Assembly: GCA_902799835.1 (NCBI GenBank)
Contig: CADCCF010000004.1
Coordinates: 150,032-214,031, forward strand
Direction of reading: 5' to 3'
Origin: an uncultured Pseudomonadota bacterium
GTDB lineage: Bacteria; Pseudomonadota; Alphaproteobacteria; RF32; CAG-239
Length of the DNA stretch: 64,000 nucleotides
The position numbers and the translations under genes were made by a program. Shown here in pieces: positions 14,079 through 29,523 of this stretch. Under the pieces are notes generated by a model. That model did not search any database. It was not told the DNA's origin and was given only the letters and a program-made list of their open reading frames with translations. Within the stretch, counting starts at the first letter, position 1; each line of letters starts with the position of its first letter.

Positions 14079-14363
14079 ACAAACTTCCTAGCTTACTTTA
14101 TGTCTCATCATTAAAATATCGAAGTTTTACTTTGGTCCCTAGGGCGCGTAGCTCTAAACTGTAAACAACAGCGGGCGGCTCGTGGATTAACAAGCTCTTT
14201 ACTTCCATAATTTTAAGACTACCGACATATTTCTAACTAACAAATTCATCTGCACCTTTTGTTAATAATTCTCTTAATCCCTATAAACAATAACACTATA
14301 CCACTTTTTGCCTACCCTGTCAAGCGGGTTTTATACAAAATTTTAAAAAATATACTAAAATAT

Positions 14364-14401
14364 AAAAAACCGCTCTCTCTGAAAAGAGAGAACGGTTTTT
14401 T
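14364..14401. repeat. 37-bp palindromic hairpin repeat, copy B
   Basis: Identical to 12462..12498. Together the two copies bracket the GC-rich flotillin segment. Confidence 0.8.
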
Positions 14402-14425
14402 CAAGCTTTCGACTCGCTATCTTTT

Positions 14426-14737
14426 TTAGAAAGCGTTCTTGAGATTATCCAAACTCTTTTTCATATTCTCAACGGCTTTTTCATCTTCGGCTTTTTTGGC
14501 TTCGGCAGCATCATCAGCCTCTGCCTTTTTGGCTTCTACTTGAGCTTTGGTTTCTTCAACTTTAGCCTTAGCCTCATCAACTTGAGCATTAACTCCGGCC
14601 TTAGATTCTTCAACTTTTACAGCCAAATCATCAGCAGCTTTTGCCACAGCATTAGCGGCAGCAGCGATATCTGTTTGAGCATTTGCCGCAAAGGCAACTG
14701 ATGTCAACAAAGTCGCAAGAGCGAATAACTTTTTCAT
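14426..14737 (-). CDS. Secreted Ala/Lys/Glu-rich helical protein (hypothetical)
   Basis: Signal peptide MKKLFALATLLTSVAFAANA, followed by low-complexity AKAEV repeats. Confidence 0.4.
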   Translation of the reverse strand: MKKLFALATLLTSVAFAANAQTDIAAAANAVAKAADDLAVKVEESKAGVNAQVDEAKAKVEETKAQVEAKKAEADDAAEAKKAEDEKAVENMKKSLDNLKNAF

Positions 14738-24187: not shown

Positions 24188-25135
24188 ATGAGTAATATTT
24201 TAGAATTTAATGAACAAAATCTGACCATCGCCGCCACTACCATTAAAAAAGGCGGTTTAGTCGCTTTTCCCACCGAGACGGTCTATGGTCTCGGGGCTGA
24301 TTCATATAATGCTAAAGCTGTTGCGCAAATTTTTGCCGCCAAAGGTCGCCCGACATTTAATCCTCTCATCTCACATATCGCCGAAATTGATATGCTCAAA
24401 GAATTAGCCGTTCCCGATGCCAGAGCTTATGCCTTGGCCAAGGAATTTTGGCCCGGACCTTTAACTTTTATTTTGCCACGCAGGACATCCAACTCGGCTC
24501 TTGATTTAGTTTGTGCCGGACTGCCTAATATCTCGGTGAGAATGCCTAATCATCCGATTGCACTTGCCTTAATCAAACAAAGCGGCACCCCGATTGCTGC
24601 TCCCTCGGCCAATCGTTCCCAAACTATTTCTCCCACCACTGCACAACATGTTGCCGATTCTTTAGGTGATAATGTTGATGTCATCCTTGACGGTGGCGCT
24701 TGCAAGGTCGGAGTTGAATCTACCATTATTGATTTGACAACCAAAGATGTAGTAATATTGCGCGCCGGCGGACTATCCAAAGAAAATTTAGAAGAATTTT
24801 TAGGTGAAAAAGTTTTGCTATCCCATGGCAATCCTGAGCTTCCCACTTCACCCGGACAAATGCTCAAGCATTATGCGCCCAAACTTTCCACTCGAATCAA
24901 TGTTGCCCCTACCGACCGCCAATCTGATGAATTTTACATTGGTTTCGGCGACATGGATTGCGATTTGAATTTAAGTCCGACAGGTGATACTACCGAAGCC
25001 GCGGCTAATTTATTTGCCTACATGCATTTGGCTGAGACACAAACCACCTACCCCAAAATTGCTATCGCCCCTATTCCCAATAATGGCTTGGGTTTAGCAA
25101 TTAACGACCGCATACGTCGTGCTTCTTACAAATAA
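24188..25135 (+). CDS. tsaC: L-threonylcarbamoyladenylate synthase (Sua5/YrdC long form)
   Basis: YrdC domain motif GGLVAFPTETVYGLGAD plus a Sua5 C-terminal domain. Confidence 0.85.
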   Translation: MSNILEFNEQNLTIAATTIKKGGLVAFPTETVYGLGADSYNAKAVAQIFAAKGRPTFNPLISHIAEIDMLKELAVPDARAYALAKEFWPGPLTFILPRRTSNSALDLVCAGLPNISVRMPNHPIALALIKQSGTPIAAPSANRSQTISPTTAQHVADSLGDNVDVILDGGACKVGVESTIIDLTTKDVVILRAGGLSKENLEEFLGEKVLLSHGNPELPTSPGQMLKHYAPKLSTRINVAPTDRQSDEFYIGFGDMDCDLNLSPTGDTTEAAANLFAYMHLAETQTTYPKIAIAPIPNNGLGLAINDRIRRASYK

Positions 25136-25244
25136 AACTCCATTAAATACGACTCGCAAACCCATGCAGCACCATTATACCTCAGCTTTTGATATTTAAA
25201 ATCAATATGCTGTTAACTTATTGATTTTACTTAATATATTTCAT

Positions 25245-25273
25245 TTGACAACCACGGCAAAATGTGGTATATT
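25245..25273 (+). promoter_or_regulatory. Near-consensus sigma-70 promoter (TTGACA-17-TGgTATATT)
   Basis: TTGACA, a 17-nt spacer ending in TGG, then TATATT. Lies upstream of the small ORF at 25416. Confidence 0.5.
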
Positions 25274-25415
25274 ATGAGTGTAAATGATTATTAATTCGCT
25301 ATAGATATAAATGAGTTCTGTTTCTGGTTTTTACTGGTTATAGGGTTTGTTCATTTCTAAAGTGACTAATAATCATTTTTTTTTATGAATATTAACCCAT
25401 TAAACACATAAAAAC

Positions 25416-25655
25416 ATGAAAGAAACTAGAATTCTGCCTATTATCATAGGTGCCTTAACAGGTTTGAGCGTCTCCCAGAGCATTATGATTGCAAAAAACA
25501 GGGGCGACGAACAAATTGTTACCGAGGTCATCACCTCCACCTCGGAAGAAACAATCATTAAAACAGAGGAGGGAATCTTTAGTATCTCCGACGACAACGT
25601 CGTCGTAGGCGATACAATCTTCCTCCGCGGAGGAAAGAAATATAAGAAAGTTTAA
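25416..25655 (+). CDS. Small membrane protein (79 aa, hypothetical)
   Basis: N-terminal transmembrane helix. Strong promoter upstream and a terminator at 25664-25702 downstream. Confidence 0.35.
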   Translation: MKETRILPIIIGALTGLSVSQSIMIAKNRGDEQIVTEVITSTSEETIIKTEEGIFSISDDNVVVGDTIFLRGGKKYKKV

Positions 25656-25783
25656 ACAGATAAAGAATAGGGCCATCCGTGAGGACCGCCCTTTTCTTTT
25701 TTTAAACTTTGATAGAGTCACGCACGAAGGCTTGCTTCTAAAGTATAAAAAAAAGGGCTGATTAGCCCTTTTTTTTATTAATA

Positions 25784-26572
25784 TTACATGGTTCGTTGAG
25801 GTTGCCTGGTAACCAAATTTAGTTTAGAAGCATTATGATGTTGTTTATCCATATCTTTAAGTGCCTGATGCAATTCACGCATGTTATCAAATACACCATC
25901 AACTCCAAGTTTTTTACACTCACTTATGTATTCAGCATTATTATTGGCTACCGCTCCGACAAAGGCAAACACCCTCATTCCCGCAGCTTTAGCTGCCATT
26001 ATACCATCGATAGAATCCTCTATTACTATCGCATCTTTGGGATCAAATCCCATACTTCTGGCTGCACATTTAAATATATCAGGCTCCGGCTTACCTTTTT
26101 TTACATCAGGCATATCTGCCGTAAAACAATTTACGCCCCATGTAAAATATTTATCAATTCCAACCGTACCATTTTTAGTATCACTTTGCTCATGGTTAGC
26201 ACCTGTTGCAATACATTGCTTAAATCTCTTATCCTTAAATATCTCTTCAACTCCGGGAGTTAATTTCAGTCTTTTTTTATCATTCATTGCTTTATTGTGT
26301 AGAATGTTAAGTGTTTTCATGAAATAATCGTCAATAAGCTTTTCCGGAACATTATTGCCAAATTTTTTACTTAATACATTTCCAAATGCTTTAGGTAATT
26401 CAGCTTCCAATCTCATGGCTTTATCATTTTCCGATATTCCAATTAGCCAAGATCTTTTCTGTTTTTCGGTCAATTCTATACCATATCTATCTTTCAAAAC
26501 TGTTGCCCAGTTCTCAGCCCATATGTAATCACTGTCACAAATTACGCCGTCAAAATCCCATATAACCAACAT
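25784..26572 (-). CDS. HAD-superfamily hydrolase
   Basis: HAD motif I at the N-terminus (MLVIWDFDGVICDSD). Bidirectional terminator hairpin AGGGCTGATTAGCCCT downstream. Confidence 0.6.
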   Translation of the reverse strand: MLVIWDFDGVICDSDYIWAENWATVLKDRYGIELTEKQKRSWLIGISENDKAMRLEAELPKAFGNVLSKKFGNNVPEKLIDDYFMKTLNILHNKAMNDKKRLKLTPGVEEIFKDKRFKQCIATGANHEQSDTKNGTVGIDKYFTWGVNCFTADMPDVKKGKPEPDIFKCAARSMGFDPKDAIVIEDSIDGIMAAKAAGMRVFAFVGAVANNNAEYISECKKLGVDGVFDNMRELHQALKDMDKQHHNASKLNLVTRQPQRTM

Positions 26573-26659: not shown

Positions 26660-27886
26660 TTATACCATATCAGGTTCAGGAATGACTTCCGGCTCAGGCT
26701 CCGGTTTTTTGAAGAAATGATGTTGCAATTGGAACACTAAAGCTCCCCATAAGGCTGACAATCCCGATCCGCATAAAATTCCCAATCTGATTTCTGCCTG
26801 CATATCATAAGGCAAAGACAATTTTCCGACAAACAATGCCATCGTAAAACCGATACCGGCAATAGATGCCACGCCATACAAATCAAGCTTACTTACCGTA
26901 TCAGGAAATTTTGCCAATCCCGTTTTTACCATCAACCAAGTAGTTGTAAAAATACCGATCTGTTTACCCAAAAACAACCCGAAAATAATACCTAAAGTCA
27001 AAGTATGAGTAAATGTTTCCGCTGTAACATTACCAAGATACAACCCGGCCGAAGCAAAAGCAAACACCGGTAAAATAATCAAATCAACCCATGGTTTTAA
27101 TTTGTGCATCAAACGCTCTAACGGCGAATATTTTTTGATATTAACCCGCATCGGATAGGCCATTGCTACCACCACTCCGGCCATAGTGGTATGAATACCG
27201 CCATTCAAAAAGCAATACCACAATGCCACCCCGAAAAACATATACAACGAAAAATTGGTAAACTGCATACGATTGAGCAAATAAAGACCTACGCAGGCCA
27301 AACTGGCATAGCCTAACAAATCAATTGATACACCTTTGTTGTAGAATAATGCAATAATCAAAATTGCCCCTAAGTCATCAAAAATCGCAATTGCTAAAAG
27401 AAAAATCTTGGCGGCCTTAGGTATTGCCCCACCAACCAGCATCAAAACACAAACCGCAAAAGCAATATCGGTTGCCGTAGGTATTGCCCAACCATTAGCA
27501 TATTGTTCCGAATTATAATTAAAAGCAAAATAAATTAAAGCCGGACAAATAATACCACCGGCAGCGGCTATTGCCGGCACAAAAATTTGTTTGATATCCG
27601 AAAGAAATCCCTCACGCATCTCACGTTTGAGTTCCAATCCCACTTGCAAAAAGAAAAATACCATCAAAACGTCATTAACCCACCATTCTAACGGACGTGA
27701 AAATTCCACATCGCTTAGACCTACGAATAACTTGACATTCCAAAATTCATATACCTTATAATGTAAATCGCTGTTAGCACACCAAATCGAGGCAATCATT
27801 GCCGCAATCATCAAAACACCGCTGGTCATTTCATTATAAATAATCTTTTCCAGCCATTCTCTTAGATTCATTTTTCTCACCTGCAA
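26660..27886 (-). CDS. nhaA: Na+/H+ antiporter NhaA
   Basis: N-terminal EKIIYNEMTSGVLMIAAMIASIWCANS and a 12-TM profile typical of NhaA. Confidence 0.85.
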   Translation of the reverse strand: MQVRKMNLREWLEKIIYNEMTSGVLMIAAMIASIWCANSDLHYKVYEFWNVKLFVGLSDVEFSRPLEWWVNDVLMVFFFLQVGLELKREMREGFLSDIKQIFVPAIAAAGGIICPALIYFAFNYNSEQYANGWAIPTATDIAFAVCVLMLVGGAIPKAAKIFLLAIAIFDDLGAILIIALFYNKGVSIDLLGYASLACVGLYLLNRMQFTNFSLYMFFGVALWYCFLNGGIHTTMAGVVVAMAYPMRVNIKKYSPLERLMHKLKPWVDLIILPVFAFASAGLYLGNVTAETFTHTLTLGIIFGLFLGKQIGIFTTTWLMVKTGLAKFPDTVSKLDLYGVASIAGIGFTMALFVGKLSLPYDMQAEIRLGILCGSGLSALWGALVFQLQHHFFKKPEPEPEVIPEPDMV

Positions 27887-28065
27887 ATTAAAGCTAAAAT
27901 CTCTGACTATTATATAATGCCGAAATATTTAATATTTTATAAAAAACAACAAATAAAACTCTTAAAAAACGACTCGAAAAATTGCATGGTATTATTATAC
28001 CATTAAATCTGATATTAAAATTAAATAATTTTCATATCTTATTGATTTTAATTGATAAAAAAAAT

Positions 28066-28094
28066 TTGACAAAATATATAAATTATGGTATATT
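28066..28094 (+). promoter_or_regulatory. Near-consensus sigma-70 promoter (TTGACA-17-TGgTATATT) reading into the ORF-free region
   Basis: Same architecture as the promoter at 25245, including the ATGGTATATTA -10 region. A 7-bp-arm palindrome ATGGTATtattATACCAT lies upstream at 27993-28013. Confidence 0.5.
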
Positions 28095-28332
28095 AATAAT
28101 CGATAACTTATTATTAATATTTATTTTTGGTAAATAGGACTCAGTCACTTTTAATTCGACCTTTGTGTTCAAGCCATTTATCCTGCTTGAAGTCTGAAGT
28201 CATCACCCTATATTATTTTGATGTTTGGTTAACATTGTAAATAAATAGTATGATGCTTTATAAAAGAATTAAAAAACAAAGAAGCCCGGGAGTTTACCAA
28301 GAGAAGCATTTTGAAAGCAAAGATACAAAATG

Positions 28333-28461
28333 AAAACTAGAGAAACAAATTTAATTTGTTTCTTGCCATCACAACATCAGTTGAGATAGGCGTGCCGTAT
28401 GGCCGAACACATCAGTGTTACGCAGTTTCCATTTTTTTGCCGGATGAGTAAGTCTTACAAG
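28333..28461 (+). ncRNA. Candidate structured RNA element, tandem copy 1
   Basis: Identical core GTTTCTTGCCATCACAACATCAGTTGAGATAGGCGTGCCGTATGG, then the hairpin AACAC-atca-GTGTT. No ORF. Lies downstream of a strong promoter. Confidence 0.3.
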
Positions 28462-28703
28462 TGGACGTTCTAGAAAAAAGGATCTGTAATCATTTATCTG
28501 CTTGCAGATAAAAAACAGTAAGCCTTTCCACCTCTGAAAAAAAATGAAATTTCAACAATCTAAGGATCTGTAATCCCTTTATCCTCTCTCGGATTATTGG
28601 CGAAAATAATCTGATTGCCGATAGAGTAACAGCAAACCTTAGAAAGAGAAAAAAACTGATTTTGTCTCGGGAAAGCATTTCGAGAACAGAAATCAAAGAA
28701 TTA

Positions 28704-28846
28704 AACTAGAGAAATACAAGAACTAACCACTCCTGTGTTTCTTGCCATCACAACATCAGTTGAGATAGGCGTGCCGTATGGTCGAGCACAACAGTGCTAC
28801 GCAGTTTAATTTTGAGATTTTTGTTTAAGAATGTAAGTCTTAAAAA
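28704..28846 (+). ncRNA. Candidate structured RNA element, tandem copy 2
   Basis: Same leader (AAACTAGAGAAA) and core as copy 1. The hairpin is AGCAC-aaca-GTGCT, which is compensatory relative to copy 1. Confidence 0.3.
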
Positions 28847-29041
28847 TGAATGGGCAATAACTTATTTATCTACCCTCCTCATTTCCGTGAAAAACAGGAA
28901 AAAAAACCTCTCTTCAAATAGTCAGCACAAGACTAAAAGAAGGGAGGTTTATCTTTTTAAACTGTTTCCTTATCCCTAAAAAATTCGCACAATACCATTA
29001 TACAAACTTAAAAAAGTTCGGATAGTAAGGCGGATAATAAG

Positions 29042-29133
29042 AAAACTGCGAATAGCTCGTGTAGATAATAAGAAACTTCCTAAAAAGTGAAGGAAGTGTA
29101 CTTTAAGCGTACATGACCGAACTTTTTAGGAAG
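29042..29133. repeat. Dispersed hairpin element, copy 2 (leader AAAACTGCGAAtAGCTCGTGTAGATAA plus nested inverted repeats)
   Basis: Outer stem CTTCCTAAAAAGT/ACTTTTTAGGAAG. Inner stem TGTAC/GTACA. Leader is shared with copy 1. Confidence 0.5.
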
Positions 29134-29178
29134 CTTCTGTATTAGATACCAGCTAGACGCAATTTTACCACGAACTTT

Positions 29179-29523
29179 TTAATCTACGTAAATTACGTCA
29201 TCATCCGTATCACTCACACATTGGCGAGTAACCGTGCCTTTTTTGCGTGATACCACGGTGTAACACTTGTTTTCCGGTTCAGCAATATAAACCTTTGGTT
29301 GTTGCACCTGTACAACTCTGGGACGAGTTGAAGCAACAATAGCATCAGCCAAAGCAACACCGGCTAAAGTCCCCAAGACGACATTACCAAAATGACGTCC
29401 TCCATGGTGATGAGTGTGATAATGAAAACCACCCCCATGCCAGCCGCCGTGCCAACCGCCTCTTGCCTGAGCCGGAGCGGCCATTGCCATGCAAACCATC
29501 AAAGCAATTATCAATTTTTTCAT
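29179..29523 (-). CDS. Secreted Gly/His-rich protein (possible metal-binding)
   Basis: Signal peptide, then GGWHGGWHGGGFHYHTHHHGG. Confidence 0.45.
   Translation of the reverse strand: MKKLIIALMVCMAMAAPAQARGGWHGGWHGGGFHYHTHHHGGRHFGNVVLGTLAGVALADAIVASTRPRVVQVQQPKVYIAEPENKCYTVVSRKKGTVTRQCVSDTDDDVIYVD

Follow-up and report, generated by a model that had tools for sequence, protein, structure and literature searches.

Introduction

In Alphaproteobacteria, the "cuckoo" RNAs CcsR1-4 (alpha-r14) are encoded as tandem homologous units on one precursor, expressed from one promoter. The precursor is matured by an endonuclease (RNase E), and the small RNAs (sRNAs) use a C/U-rich anti-Shine-Dalgarno motif (PMC8034643). 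Here we describe a locus of similar layout in a 64,000-nt stretch of DNA from an uncultured alphaproteobacterium (lineage RF32; CAG-239; contig CADCCF010000004.1, positions 150,032 to 214,031), hereafter called the window and numbered from its first letter. An interval of the window without credible open reading frames (ORFs), 27887-29178, contains a predicted transcription unit in which two related structured domains stand in tandem. From its sequence we lean, by a small measure, towards reading ~28066-28958 (plus strand) as a genuine, free-standing transcription unit for a structured noncoding RNA (ncRNA). We refer to its contents as the payload.

By analogy, CcsR1-4 would be the nearest functional counterpart, with the family-defining features absent. 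The payload also carries one C/U-rich stretch, CCCUCCUC. However, each CcsR RNA is a pair of simple hairpins, both with a CCUCCUCCC loop, and is linked to DUF1127 (the CIN1 locus), whereas a payload unit is a five-helix junction with the loops AUCA/CUUU, GUAU and AUCA/AACA, none of which is a CCUCCUCCC loop, and CCCUCCUC occurs once, at 28873-28880, outside either unit. No match to DUF1127 was found in the local ORFs, the flanks being nhaA and an unclassified ORF of 114 amino acids (aa).

The sRNA pairs AbcR1/2, PrrF1/2 and OmrA/B are 100-150 nt long, usually have a promoter and a terminator each, and are built of simple hairpins and a seed. The payload resembles them as a set of adjacent paralogous RNA genes in an ORF-free gap whose presumed functional part is the most constrained; it differs in having one promoter and one terminator for ~860 nt and multi-helix domains set in long stems. 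Y RNAs (YrlA/YrlB) contain a tRNA-like domain, have rsr as a neighbour, are often present as tandem sets of at least two copies and function through protein binding. As in Y RNAs, the 5' and 3' ends form a long stem around a multi-helix domain. The Y RNA families gave no match to the payload even at E-values up to 10, ARAGORN detected no tRNA-like gene or domain in it, and no Ro/Rsr protein (TROVE domain) was seen among the genes listed as flanking the interval.

CsrB/RsmZ, CrcZ and 6S RNA are strongly expressed RNAs that titrate proteins. The similar construction of the payload as an ORF-free RNA from repeated structured modules suggests multivalent binding; it differs in having neither GGA-loop repeats nor a 6S-like bubble, and only two copies of the module. 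Finally, published orphan structured-RNA candidates (PMC5737381, PMC8632094) are likewise long ORF-free regions with a conserved fold and no family. They have tens to thousands of representatives and significant covariation, whereas the present case comprises three versions from one species-level lineage.

Anatomy of the predicted transcription unit

About 91% of the window lies in ORFs according to a greedy gene map. After removal of two spurious short ORFs from this map, the 1292 nt of the interval formed the largest gene-free gap, the next one being ~350 nt; a second apparent gap (39857-40742) is occupied by rplT and rpmI. The longest ORF inside the interval has at most 68 aa. An earlier reading of the letters by a model (the sequence-only reading) had thus been right to single out an ORF-free interval of 1.3 kb amid tight gene packing. 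It had treated the interval as one intergenic spacer, which it is not: it comprises a shared regulatory region, a strain-specific, replaceable payload of ~950 nt and a palindromic element. As predicted, the transcription unit extends over ~0.86 kb from a promoter to an intrinsic terminator (~28066-28958, plus strand) and has the following parts, with P1 to P5 denoting helices:

28066-28094, plus strand: sigma-70-type promoter with extended -10, TTGACA-17-TGgTATATT (11 of 12 positions plus TG; predicted start at ~28101)
28101-28316, plus strand: 5' leader (~215 nt); its first ~35 nt (..TTATTAAT..) are common with protein-coding cassettes, the remainder is specific to the haplotype and contains hairpins, e.g. 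28168-28190
28317-28440, plus strand: structured domain of unit 1, in which P1 encloses P2 (28340-28364), P3 (28365-28391), P4 (28394-28403) and P5 (28404-28422)
28477-28527, plus strand: hairpin module H1 of repeat family D5, AAGGAUCUGUAAUC with a 9-bp-arm palindrome, then ACAG..CCUU
28559-28643, plus strand: hairpin module H2 of repeat family D5, with a base as in H1 (CUAAGGAUCUGUAAUC ... ACAG..CCUUAG) and a longer, different inner hairpin
28665-28684, plus strand: short hairpin UCUCGGG-AAAGC-AUUUCGAGA directly 5' of unit 2
28685-28825, plus strand: structured domain of unit 2, in which P1 encloses P2 (28709-28743), P3 (28744-28770), P4 (28773-28782) and P5 (28783-28801)
28873-28880, plus strand: pyrimidine stretch CCCUCCUC, anti-Shine-Dalgarno-like and unpaired in the minimum-energy fold of the whole RNA; its role is presumed
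28905-28958, plus strand: intrinsic terminator, recognised from sequence and folds: hairpin AACCUCUCUUC..GAAGGGAGGUU, then the U-run UAUCUUUUU

The promoter was the best-scoring site in a promoter scan of the region, in which promoter-like sites as a class did not exceed chance (8 found, 6.7 expected). As a sequence feature, the near-consensus promoter pointing into the region is present as described before. A simple scan missed the terminator because its loop is longer than 8 nt. Since an A-run precedes it, the same hairpin could also end the convergent operon on the minus strand (genes for an extracytoplasmic function (ECF) sigma factor, an LTXXQ protein and, last, the 114-aa protein).

The tandem arrangement was confirmed: the 72-nt cores of the units (28357-28428 and 28736-28807) are 94% identical, and a 38-nt core occurs exactly twice in the window (0 expected). 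The flanks of the units are ~74% identical, and flanking blocks repeat too, at a spacing of 369-385 nt. H1 and H2 share the base AAGGAUCUGUAAUC...ACAG..CCUU. A 20-bp palindrome at 28493-28512 had been called perfect; the palindrome is there, but it consists of 9-bp arms around a TT that is not self-complementary (TTTATCTGC-TT-GCAGATAAA). In the related metagenome locus L017, the leader differs by 12 substitutions in 211 columns, and the CCCUCCUC stretch is kept although a 15-nt insertion sits just upstream. A small hairpin separates this stretch from the terminator.

Fold of the tandem units

Three distinct versions of the unit were available, namely unit 1 of the window, unit 2 of the window (identical in L017) and unit 1 of L017. 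Folded alone, each of these domains of ~125-140 nt gave the same architecture despite differing lengths of P2: four hairpins meet in a five-way junction, which is closed by P1, a stem of ~20 bp interrupted by an internal loop. P2 varies in length and sequence. P3 is GCCAUC-A-CAAC-loop-GUUG-A-GAU-A-GGC, P4 is GCC-GUAU-GGY and P5 is CG-ARCAC-loop-GUGYU-A-CG. On the plus strand, the minimum free energy (MFE) was -37.2 kcal/mol for unit 1 (z = -4.6) and -47.5 kcal/mol for unit 2 (z = -6.6), and a covariance model built from the three versions (R1) scored them at 138.7 and 156.9 bits, respectively. The z-score of H2 was -3.9 (plus strand) and that of H1 a weak -2.1 (plus strand); the whole 862-nt RNA reached -7.4 on the plus and -5.6 on the minus strand. 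A long-range helix between the 5' and 3' ends that would close the whole RNA was rejected, as its pairing was inconsistent between the window and L017.

Of the 57 pairs in the RNAalifold prediction, 5 show compensatory changes on both sides (e.g. A-U to G-C in P5, C-G to U-A in P2 and G-C to U-A in P1). Of the cells, 98% pair, compared with 34-43% when the partners are slid. The differences between the window and L017 are spread unevenly. The 5' strand of P1 together with P2 in unit 1 has 17 substitutions and 8 gap columns in 56 columns, with pairing retained; P3-P5 have 3 substitutions in 64 columns, all in the loop of P3; and unit 2 has none. Across the versions, P1 and P2 diverge by ~45% yet still pair, whereas identity in the P3-P5 core is 94-100%, whether paralogs or strains are compared. 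On the sequences at hand, this uneven spread of changes is the strongest argument for a real fold.

On the plus strand, the core consensus has 125 Watson-Crick, 10 G-U and no mismatched cells; on the minus strand, the numbers are 125, 6 and 5. The plus-strand tally agrees with the orientation of the promoter. The evidence thus favours the plus strand as the sense strand, short of proof.

Distribution of the payload

To compare strains, the interval from nhaA to the 114-aa gene was aligned across many gut and rumen metagenome contigs (loci numbered with L) that carry the same flanking proteins. The locus is a mosaic hot spot with an allelic cassette structure: strains differ in what they carry between the promoter and the 3' end. 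The haplotypes were:

Haplotype A (window; L002, identical; L001 and L007; L017, 92% identity): ORF-free payload
Haplotype B (L003, L004, L006, L029): long leader, 94-aa lipoprotein-like ORF and terminator
Haplotype C (L010-L016, L034, L035): 177-aa membrane protein
Haplotypes D/E (L027, L028, L030; L020-L022): shorter (deletion) forms, of which D (L027, L028, L030) still contains a vestige of the 3' region of B
Other haplotype (L039): 148-aa ORF at the cassette site

The segment specific to haplotype A extends from ~28064 to ~29010 (roughly 950 nt), and this cassette was found in at least three independent samples. Haplotypes with an intact cassette promoter also retain the -10 box and the ~35 nt of leader (..TTATTAAT..). 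Absence of the elements from relatives had been named beforehand as an outcome that would speak against an RNA locus. Most relatives do lack them, because they carry other cassettes; the 92% identical L017 keeps them, with compensating changes.

Two contigs of one sample (Logan ERR3201392) stop within the repeated domains: L001 in unit 1 at window ~28386, and L007 in unit 2 at ~28752. Contig ends within tandem units indicate that such units break short-read metagenome assemblies. Haplotype A may thus be under-represented in metagenome collections owing to assembly breaks, and loci with such tandem units are likely under-sampled in metagenome assemblies generally.

We searched for homologs of the payload with pattern scans that tolerated codon-wobble or transition changes and reach close relatives only. 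Neither a wobble-tolerant nor a transition-tolerant scan found a match in GTDB representative genomes, and pattern scans of IMG/VR found none. One scan of JGI metagenomes was empty and a second gave three matches, which we judged to be chance because they have 63-73% GC and no related fold. No blastn match was obtained against plasmids and phages. The proposed Rfam scan was run and named no family: at gathering thresholds, Rfam 15 recognised nothing in the window except two tRNAs. In E-value mode, the best match to the payload was RT-14 (28800-28951; 28.3 bits, gathering threshold 48.1, E = 0.12); this sub-threshold match was rejected for aligning to a generic hairpin and the terminator only. 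With filters off, model R1 recovered the adjacent pair in the window and no further copy there or in 39 related loci. We discarded a 17-bit match at 14352-14492, which falls in the 3' end of a small gene on the minus strand.

Alternative explanations

The ncRNA locus proposed by the sequence-only reading is partly supported, namely by the presence of a promoter and a terminator, the lack of a conserved ORF and a duplicated domain with a fold kept in three divergent versions. Several results weigh against it. The comparative alignment that had been suggested did reveal compensating changes, but the covariation is not statistically significant: the core model has 2 double-sided changes, and 95 of 500 shuffles reach that number. 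The reason is that only three distinct sequences exist, two of them paralogs in one genome; moreover, P3 and P4 never vary and are thus uninformative on pairing. Energies do not discriminate between the strands, unit 1 folding at -45.3 kcal/mol on the minus and -37.2 on the plus strand, with alifold energies of -33.4 (minus) and -32.7 (plus). Most strains of the species are without the payload, which is therefore dispensable. No homolog was found in any collection scanned; the element may be evolutionarily young, and its context gives no basis for inferring a function. Processing and a binding partner are pure inference.

The best-surviving alternative is that the payload is non-functional filler, a decaying leftover of recombination at a hot spot in which a tandem duplication arose by accident and the folds are those expected of AT-rich DNA with inverted repeats. 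A mosaic locus with deletion forms in other strains would suit this explanation, as would an element missing from most strains and from every collection scanned, covariation that is statistically weak, and two strands that fold about equally well. Filler would not be expected to keep P3-P5 94-100% identical next to P1 and P2 that diverge by ~45% and still pair, nor to give the same five-helix architecture independently in three versions with different P2 lengths. Fold z-scores of -4.6 to -7.4 and an intact near-consensus promoter with a terminator also argue against it, and we regard it as unlikely.

The units could also be functional at the level of DNA, either as a recombination site or element resembling a miniature inverted-repeat transposable element (MITE), with P1 as the terminal inverted repeats, or as a hairpin site in single-stranded DNA; the RNA fold would then be incidental. 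Imperfect inverted repeats of ~20 bp do bound each unit, the locus is a recombination hot spot, and a large serine recombinase is encoded close by in the related strain L039. However, R1 located no copies in the 64 kb other than the adjacent pair, and none in the 39 related loci. Conservation is lowest in the inverted repeats and highest in the interior, the opposite of what an inverted repeat bound by transposase would show. On the same two grounds, a MITE or Correia-like repeat was rejected. The plus strand tolerates 10 G-U cells where the minus strand has mismatches, and the window has no gene for a recombinase or transposase next to the units. A DNA-level element is accordingly improbable.

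We considered further that the transcript acts in cis or as antisense RNA, modulating either the divergent nhaA promoter through the shared -35 region or the convergent ECF-sigma/LTXXQ/114-aa operon, by transcriptional interference or terminator overlap. A promoter-like site on the minus strand that would serve nhaA, TTGTCA-16-TAAAAT (28072-28045), does overlap the plus-strand -35 box TTGACA at 28066-28072, so that back-to-back divergent promoters would share one hexamer, and the bidirectional terminator (28905-28958) is turned towards the convergent operon. Interference, however, needs no conserved five-helix domain in two copies. The same promoter also drives ordinary protein genes at the same place in other strains, and a paralogous cassette sits away from nhaA. 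We give a cis-acting transcript a small chance of being the explanation.

The promoter, together with ~130 nt upstream and ~35 nt of leader, is homologous to the promoters of the cassettes for the 94-aa lipoprotein, the 177-aa membrane protein and a 79-aa ORF. This homology to promoters of small-protein genes indicates that the promoter type serves real genes. By its sequence, the promoter is one of a family of expression platforms used for genes and in this strain appears fused to a non-gene payload.

The payload shows no coding capacity. All six frames are dense in stop codons (13-22 each over 28096-28960), and no ORF of the interval matched Pfam. A frameshifted gene remnant, which had been named as a possible explanation of the spacing, was not found: tblastn with the 94-, 177- and 79-aa proteins of the alternative cassettes gave nothing in the payload, and a pseudogene of such a cassette was rejected on this result and the stop-dense frames. 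A single frame (..FLAITTSVEIGVPYGR..) runs through the core without a stop in each of the three versions. Reading the sequences, we found no other short ORF with a Shine-Dalgarno-like motif and conservation between the window and L017, nor a conserved small-protein or type I toxin ORF with a start and a ribosome-binding site, the open frame being startless in L017 and its C-termini unconserved. Tandem small-peptide genes (the core encoding FLAITTSVEIGVPYGR(T/A)(H/Q)QCYAV as part of, e.g., a type I toxin or precursor peptide) are very improbable: the frame is open in all three versions and 2 of the 4 core differences between the paralogs are synonymous in it, but in L017 a TAG interrupts the frame and no possible start (ATG, GTG or TTG) follows it ahead of the core, the starts of the window copies (TTG and GTG) have no Shine-Dalgarno sequence upstream, the three C-termini all differ, Pfam has no match, and the peptide appears too little hydrophobic for a type I toxin.

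Other known element types were examined and rejected. By eye, a type I toxin locus was dismissed for want of a hydrophobic ORF with a start codon, and an integron attC site for want of R''/R' core sites at the unit ends and of an integrase gene. A type III toxin-antitoxin locus (ToxI-like) does not agree with a repeat period of ~370-380 nt, the lack of a short array and the lack of a downstream ORF. No short-period tandem array was present in the payload; the only entry from Tandem Repeats Finder (TRF), a 12-nt repeat in 1.9 copies at 29019-29041, lies outside it. A riboswitch or tandem aptamers would sit in the 5' UTR of a co-oriented gene and have an expression platform; here no ORF on the plus strand comes after the units, the predicted RNA stops at its terminator, and the gene beyond it is convergent.

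Possible mode of action

A structured ncRNA transcribed from the plus strand, the reading that we prefer, might work as follows. The payload would be transcribed from the strong promoter into one RNA of ~860 nt. The long, imperfect P1 stems could serve as processing sites for a double-strand- or AU-specific endonuclease (of the RNase III or RNase E type), and cleavage at P1 would release two compact, stable small RNAs of four hairpins each. If these act in trans, the invariant surface of P3-P4-P5 is the probable functional face, and the RNAs could form a two-copy decoy whose partner would most likely be a protein, otherwise an RNA. The 3' module (the exposed C/U-rich stretch, the hairpin and the terminator with its U-tail) could in its own right work as an sRNA that pairs with ribosome-binding sites. 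Any particular mode of action is put forward tentatively and may well be wrong.

A more far-reaching version seems a long shot: the two five-helix domains would found a new RNA class, protein-binding or catalytic, that takes the place of small envelope proteins as one allele of a swappable cassette site equipped with a promoter. It would be equally speculative to suppose that such an RNA competes with the lipoprotein and membrane-protein payloads under diversifying selection driven by phage or host, for instance as an RNA-based defence or surface-modulation effector.

What is new here is that a replaceable cassette site holds a strain-specific payload, whose fold belongs to no known family and is seen so far in one lineage. 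If real, it adds a new structured-RNA fold from poorly studied uncultured Alphaproteobacteria of gut and rumen. One chromosomal expression site would then hold small envelope-protein genes or an ncRNA depending on the strain, a natural experiment on the role of the RNA. The narrow distribution and the three sequences limit the weight of the finding.

Surroundings of the cassette site

The payload is bordered by the following features:

26660-27886, minus strand: nhaA-like ORF (Na+/H+ antiporter, Pfam Na_H_antiport_1), left flank of the interval
27887-28065, no strand assigned: shared regulatory region (~180 nt) from the nhaA start to the -35 box, in all haplotypes; paralog at 25128-25246
27986-28003, no strand assigned: 7-bp-arm palindrome ATGGTAT-TATT-ATACCAT in the shared upstream region
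29041-29166, no strand assigned: imperfect palindromic element of ~125 nt, adjoining the 3' end of the 114-aa gene and outside the RNA payload
29179-29523, minus strand: 114-aa Gly/His-rich ORF, unclassified; right flank, convergent

In a blastn matrix, every haplotype shared the 135-230 nt nearest nhaA at 84-94% identity. The 7-bp-arm palindrome in this region had been placed at 27993-28013; it exists, at 27986-28003. Its arms co-change in other strains (ATGGTGT..ACACCAT in haplotype B, ACGGTAT..ATACCGT in haplotype C), which suggests a conserved hairpin or a symmetric operator. The palindrome is degenerate in the paralogous region at ~25160-25180.

Haplotype C has the element at 29041-29166 too (93-95% identity to L010-L019), the shorter D/E forms have a looser match (82-84%), and haplotype B does not share it. 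Among the haplotypes, the palindromic element is present in one or two copies and in variants (also L003:6346-6470 and L020-L030), and its self-inverted blastn matches are ~74% identical. It may be a terminator or an element like the repetitive extragenic palindromic (REP) sequences. It had been described as a dispersed hairpin element; the palindrome is real, but it is single-copy within the 64-kb window and recurs at the same locus of other strains instead.

In haplotype B, the region of the -35 box and spacer (L003:7040-7110, equivalent to ~28060-28090 of the window) is a poly-G run, which is one G longer in L004 and L029 (11 G) than in L003 and L006 (10 G). A variable homopolymer between -35 and -10 is the classic layout of a phase-variable promoter and could be one here, or an artefact of assembly or sequencing. 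In L039, a large serine recombinase of 580 aa (Resolvase and Recombinase domains; L039:31-1773) is encoded directly upstream of the anti-sigma/ECF-sigma operon, which hints at integrative-element activity near the hot spot.

A second cassette is located at 25128-25700 of the window. It consists of the paralogous promoter, a leader of ~140 nt and the 79-aa ORF of secreted type (25416-25655). The paralogous promoter region (25128-25295) has TTGACA-17-TGtGGTATATT at ~25247-25275 and 78% column identity. The terminator behind the 79-aa ORF, GGGCCATCCGTGAGGAYCGCCC / GGGCCATCCGTGAGGACCGCCC, is the same as in cassettes B and C. This second cassette and a HAD-hydrolase gene (25784-26572) are missing from several loci, L003, L004 and L010 among them, in which the Sua5 gene directly adjoins nhaA.

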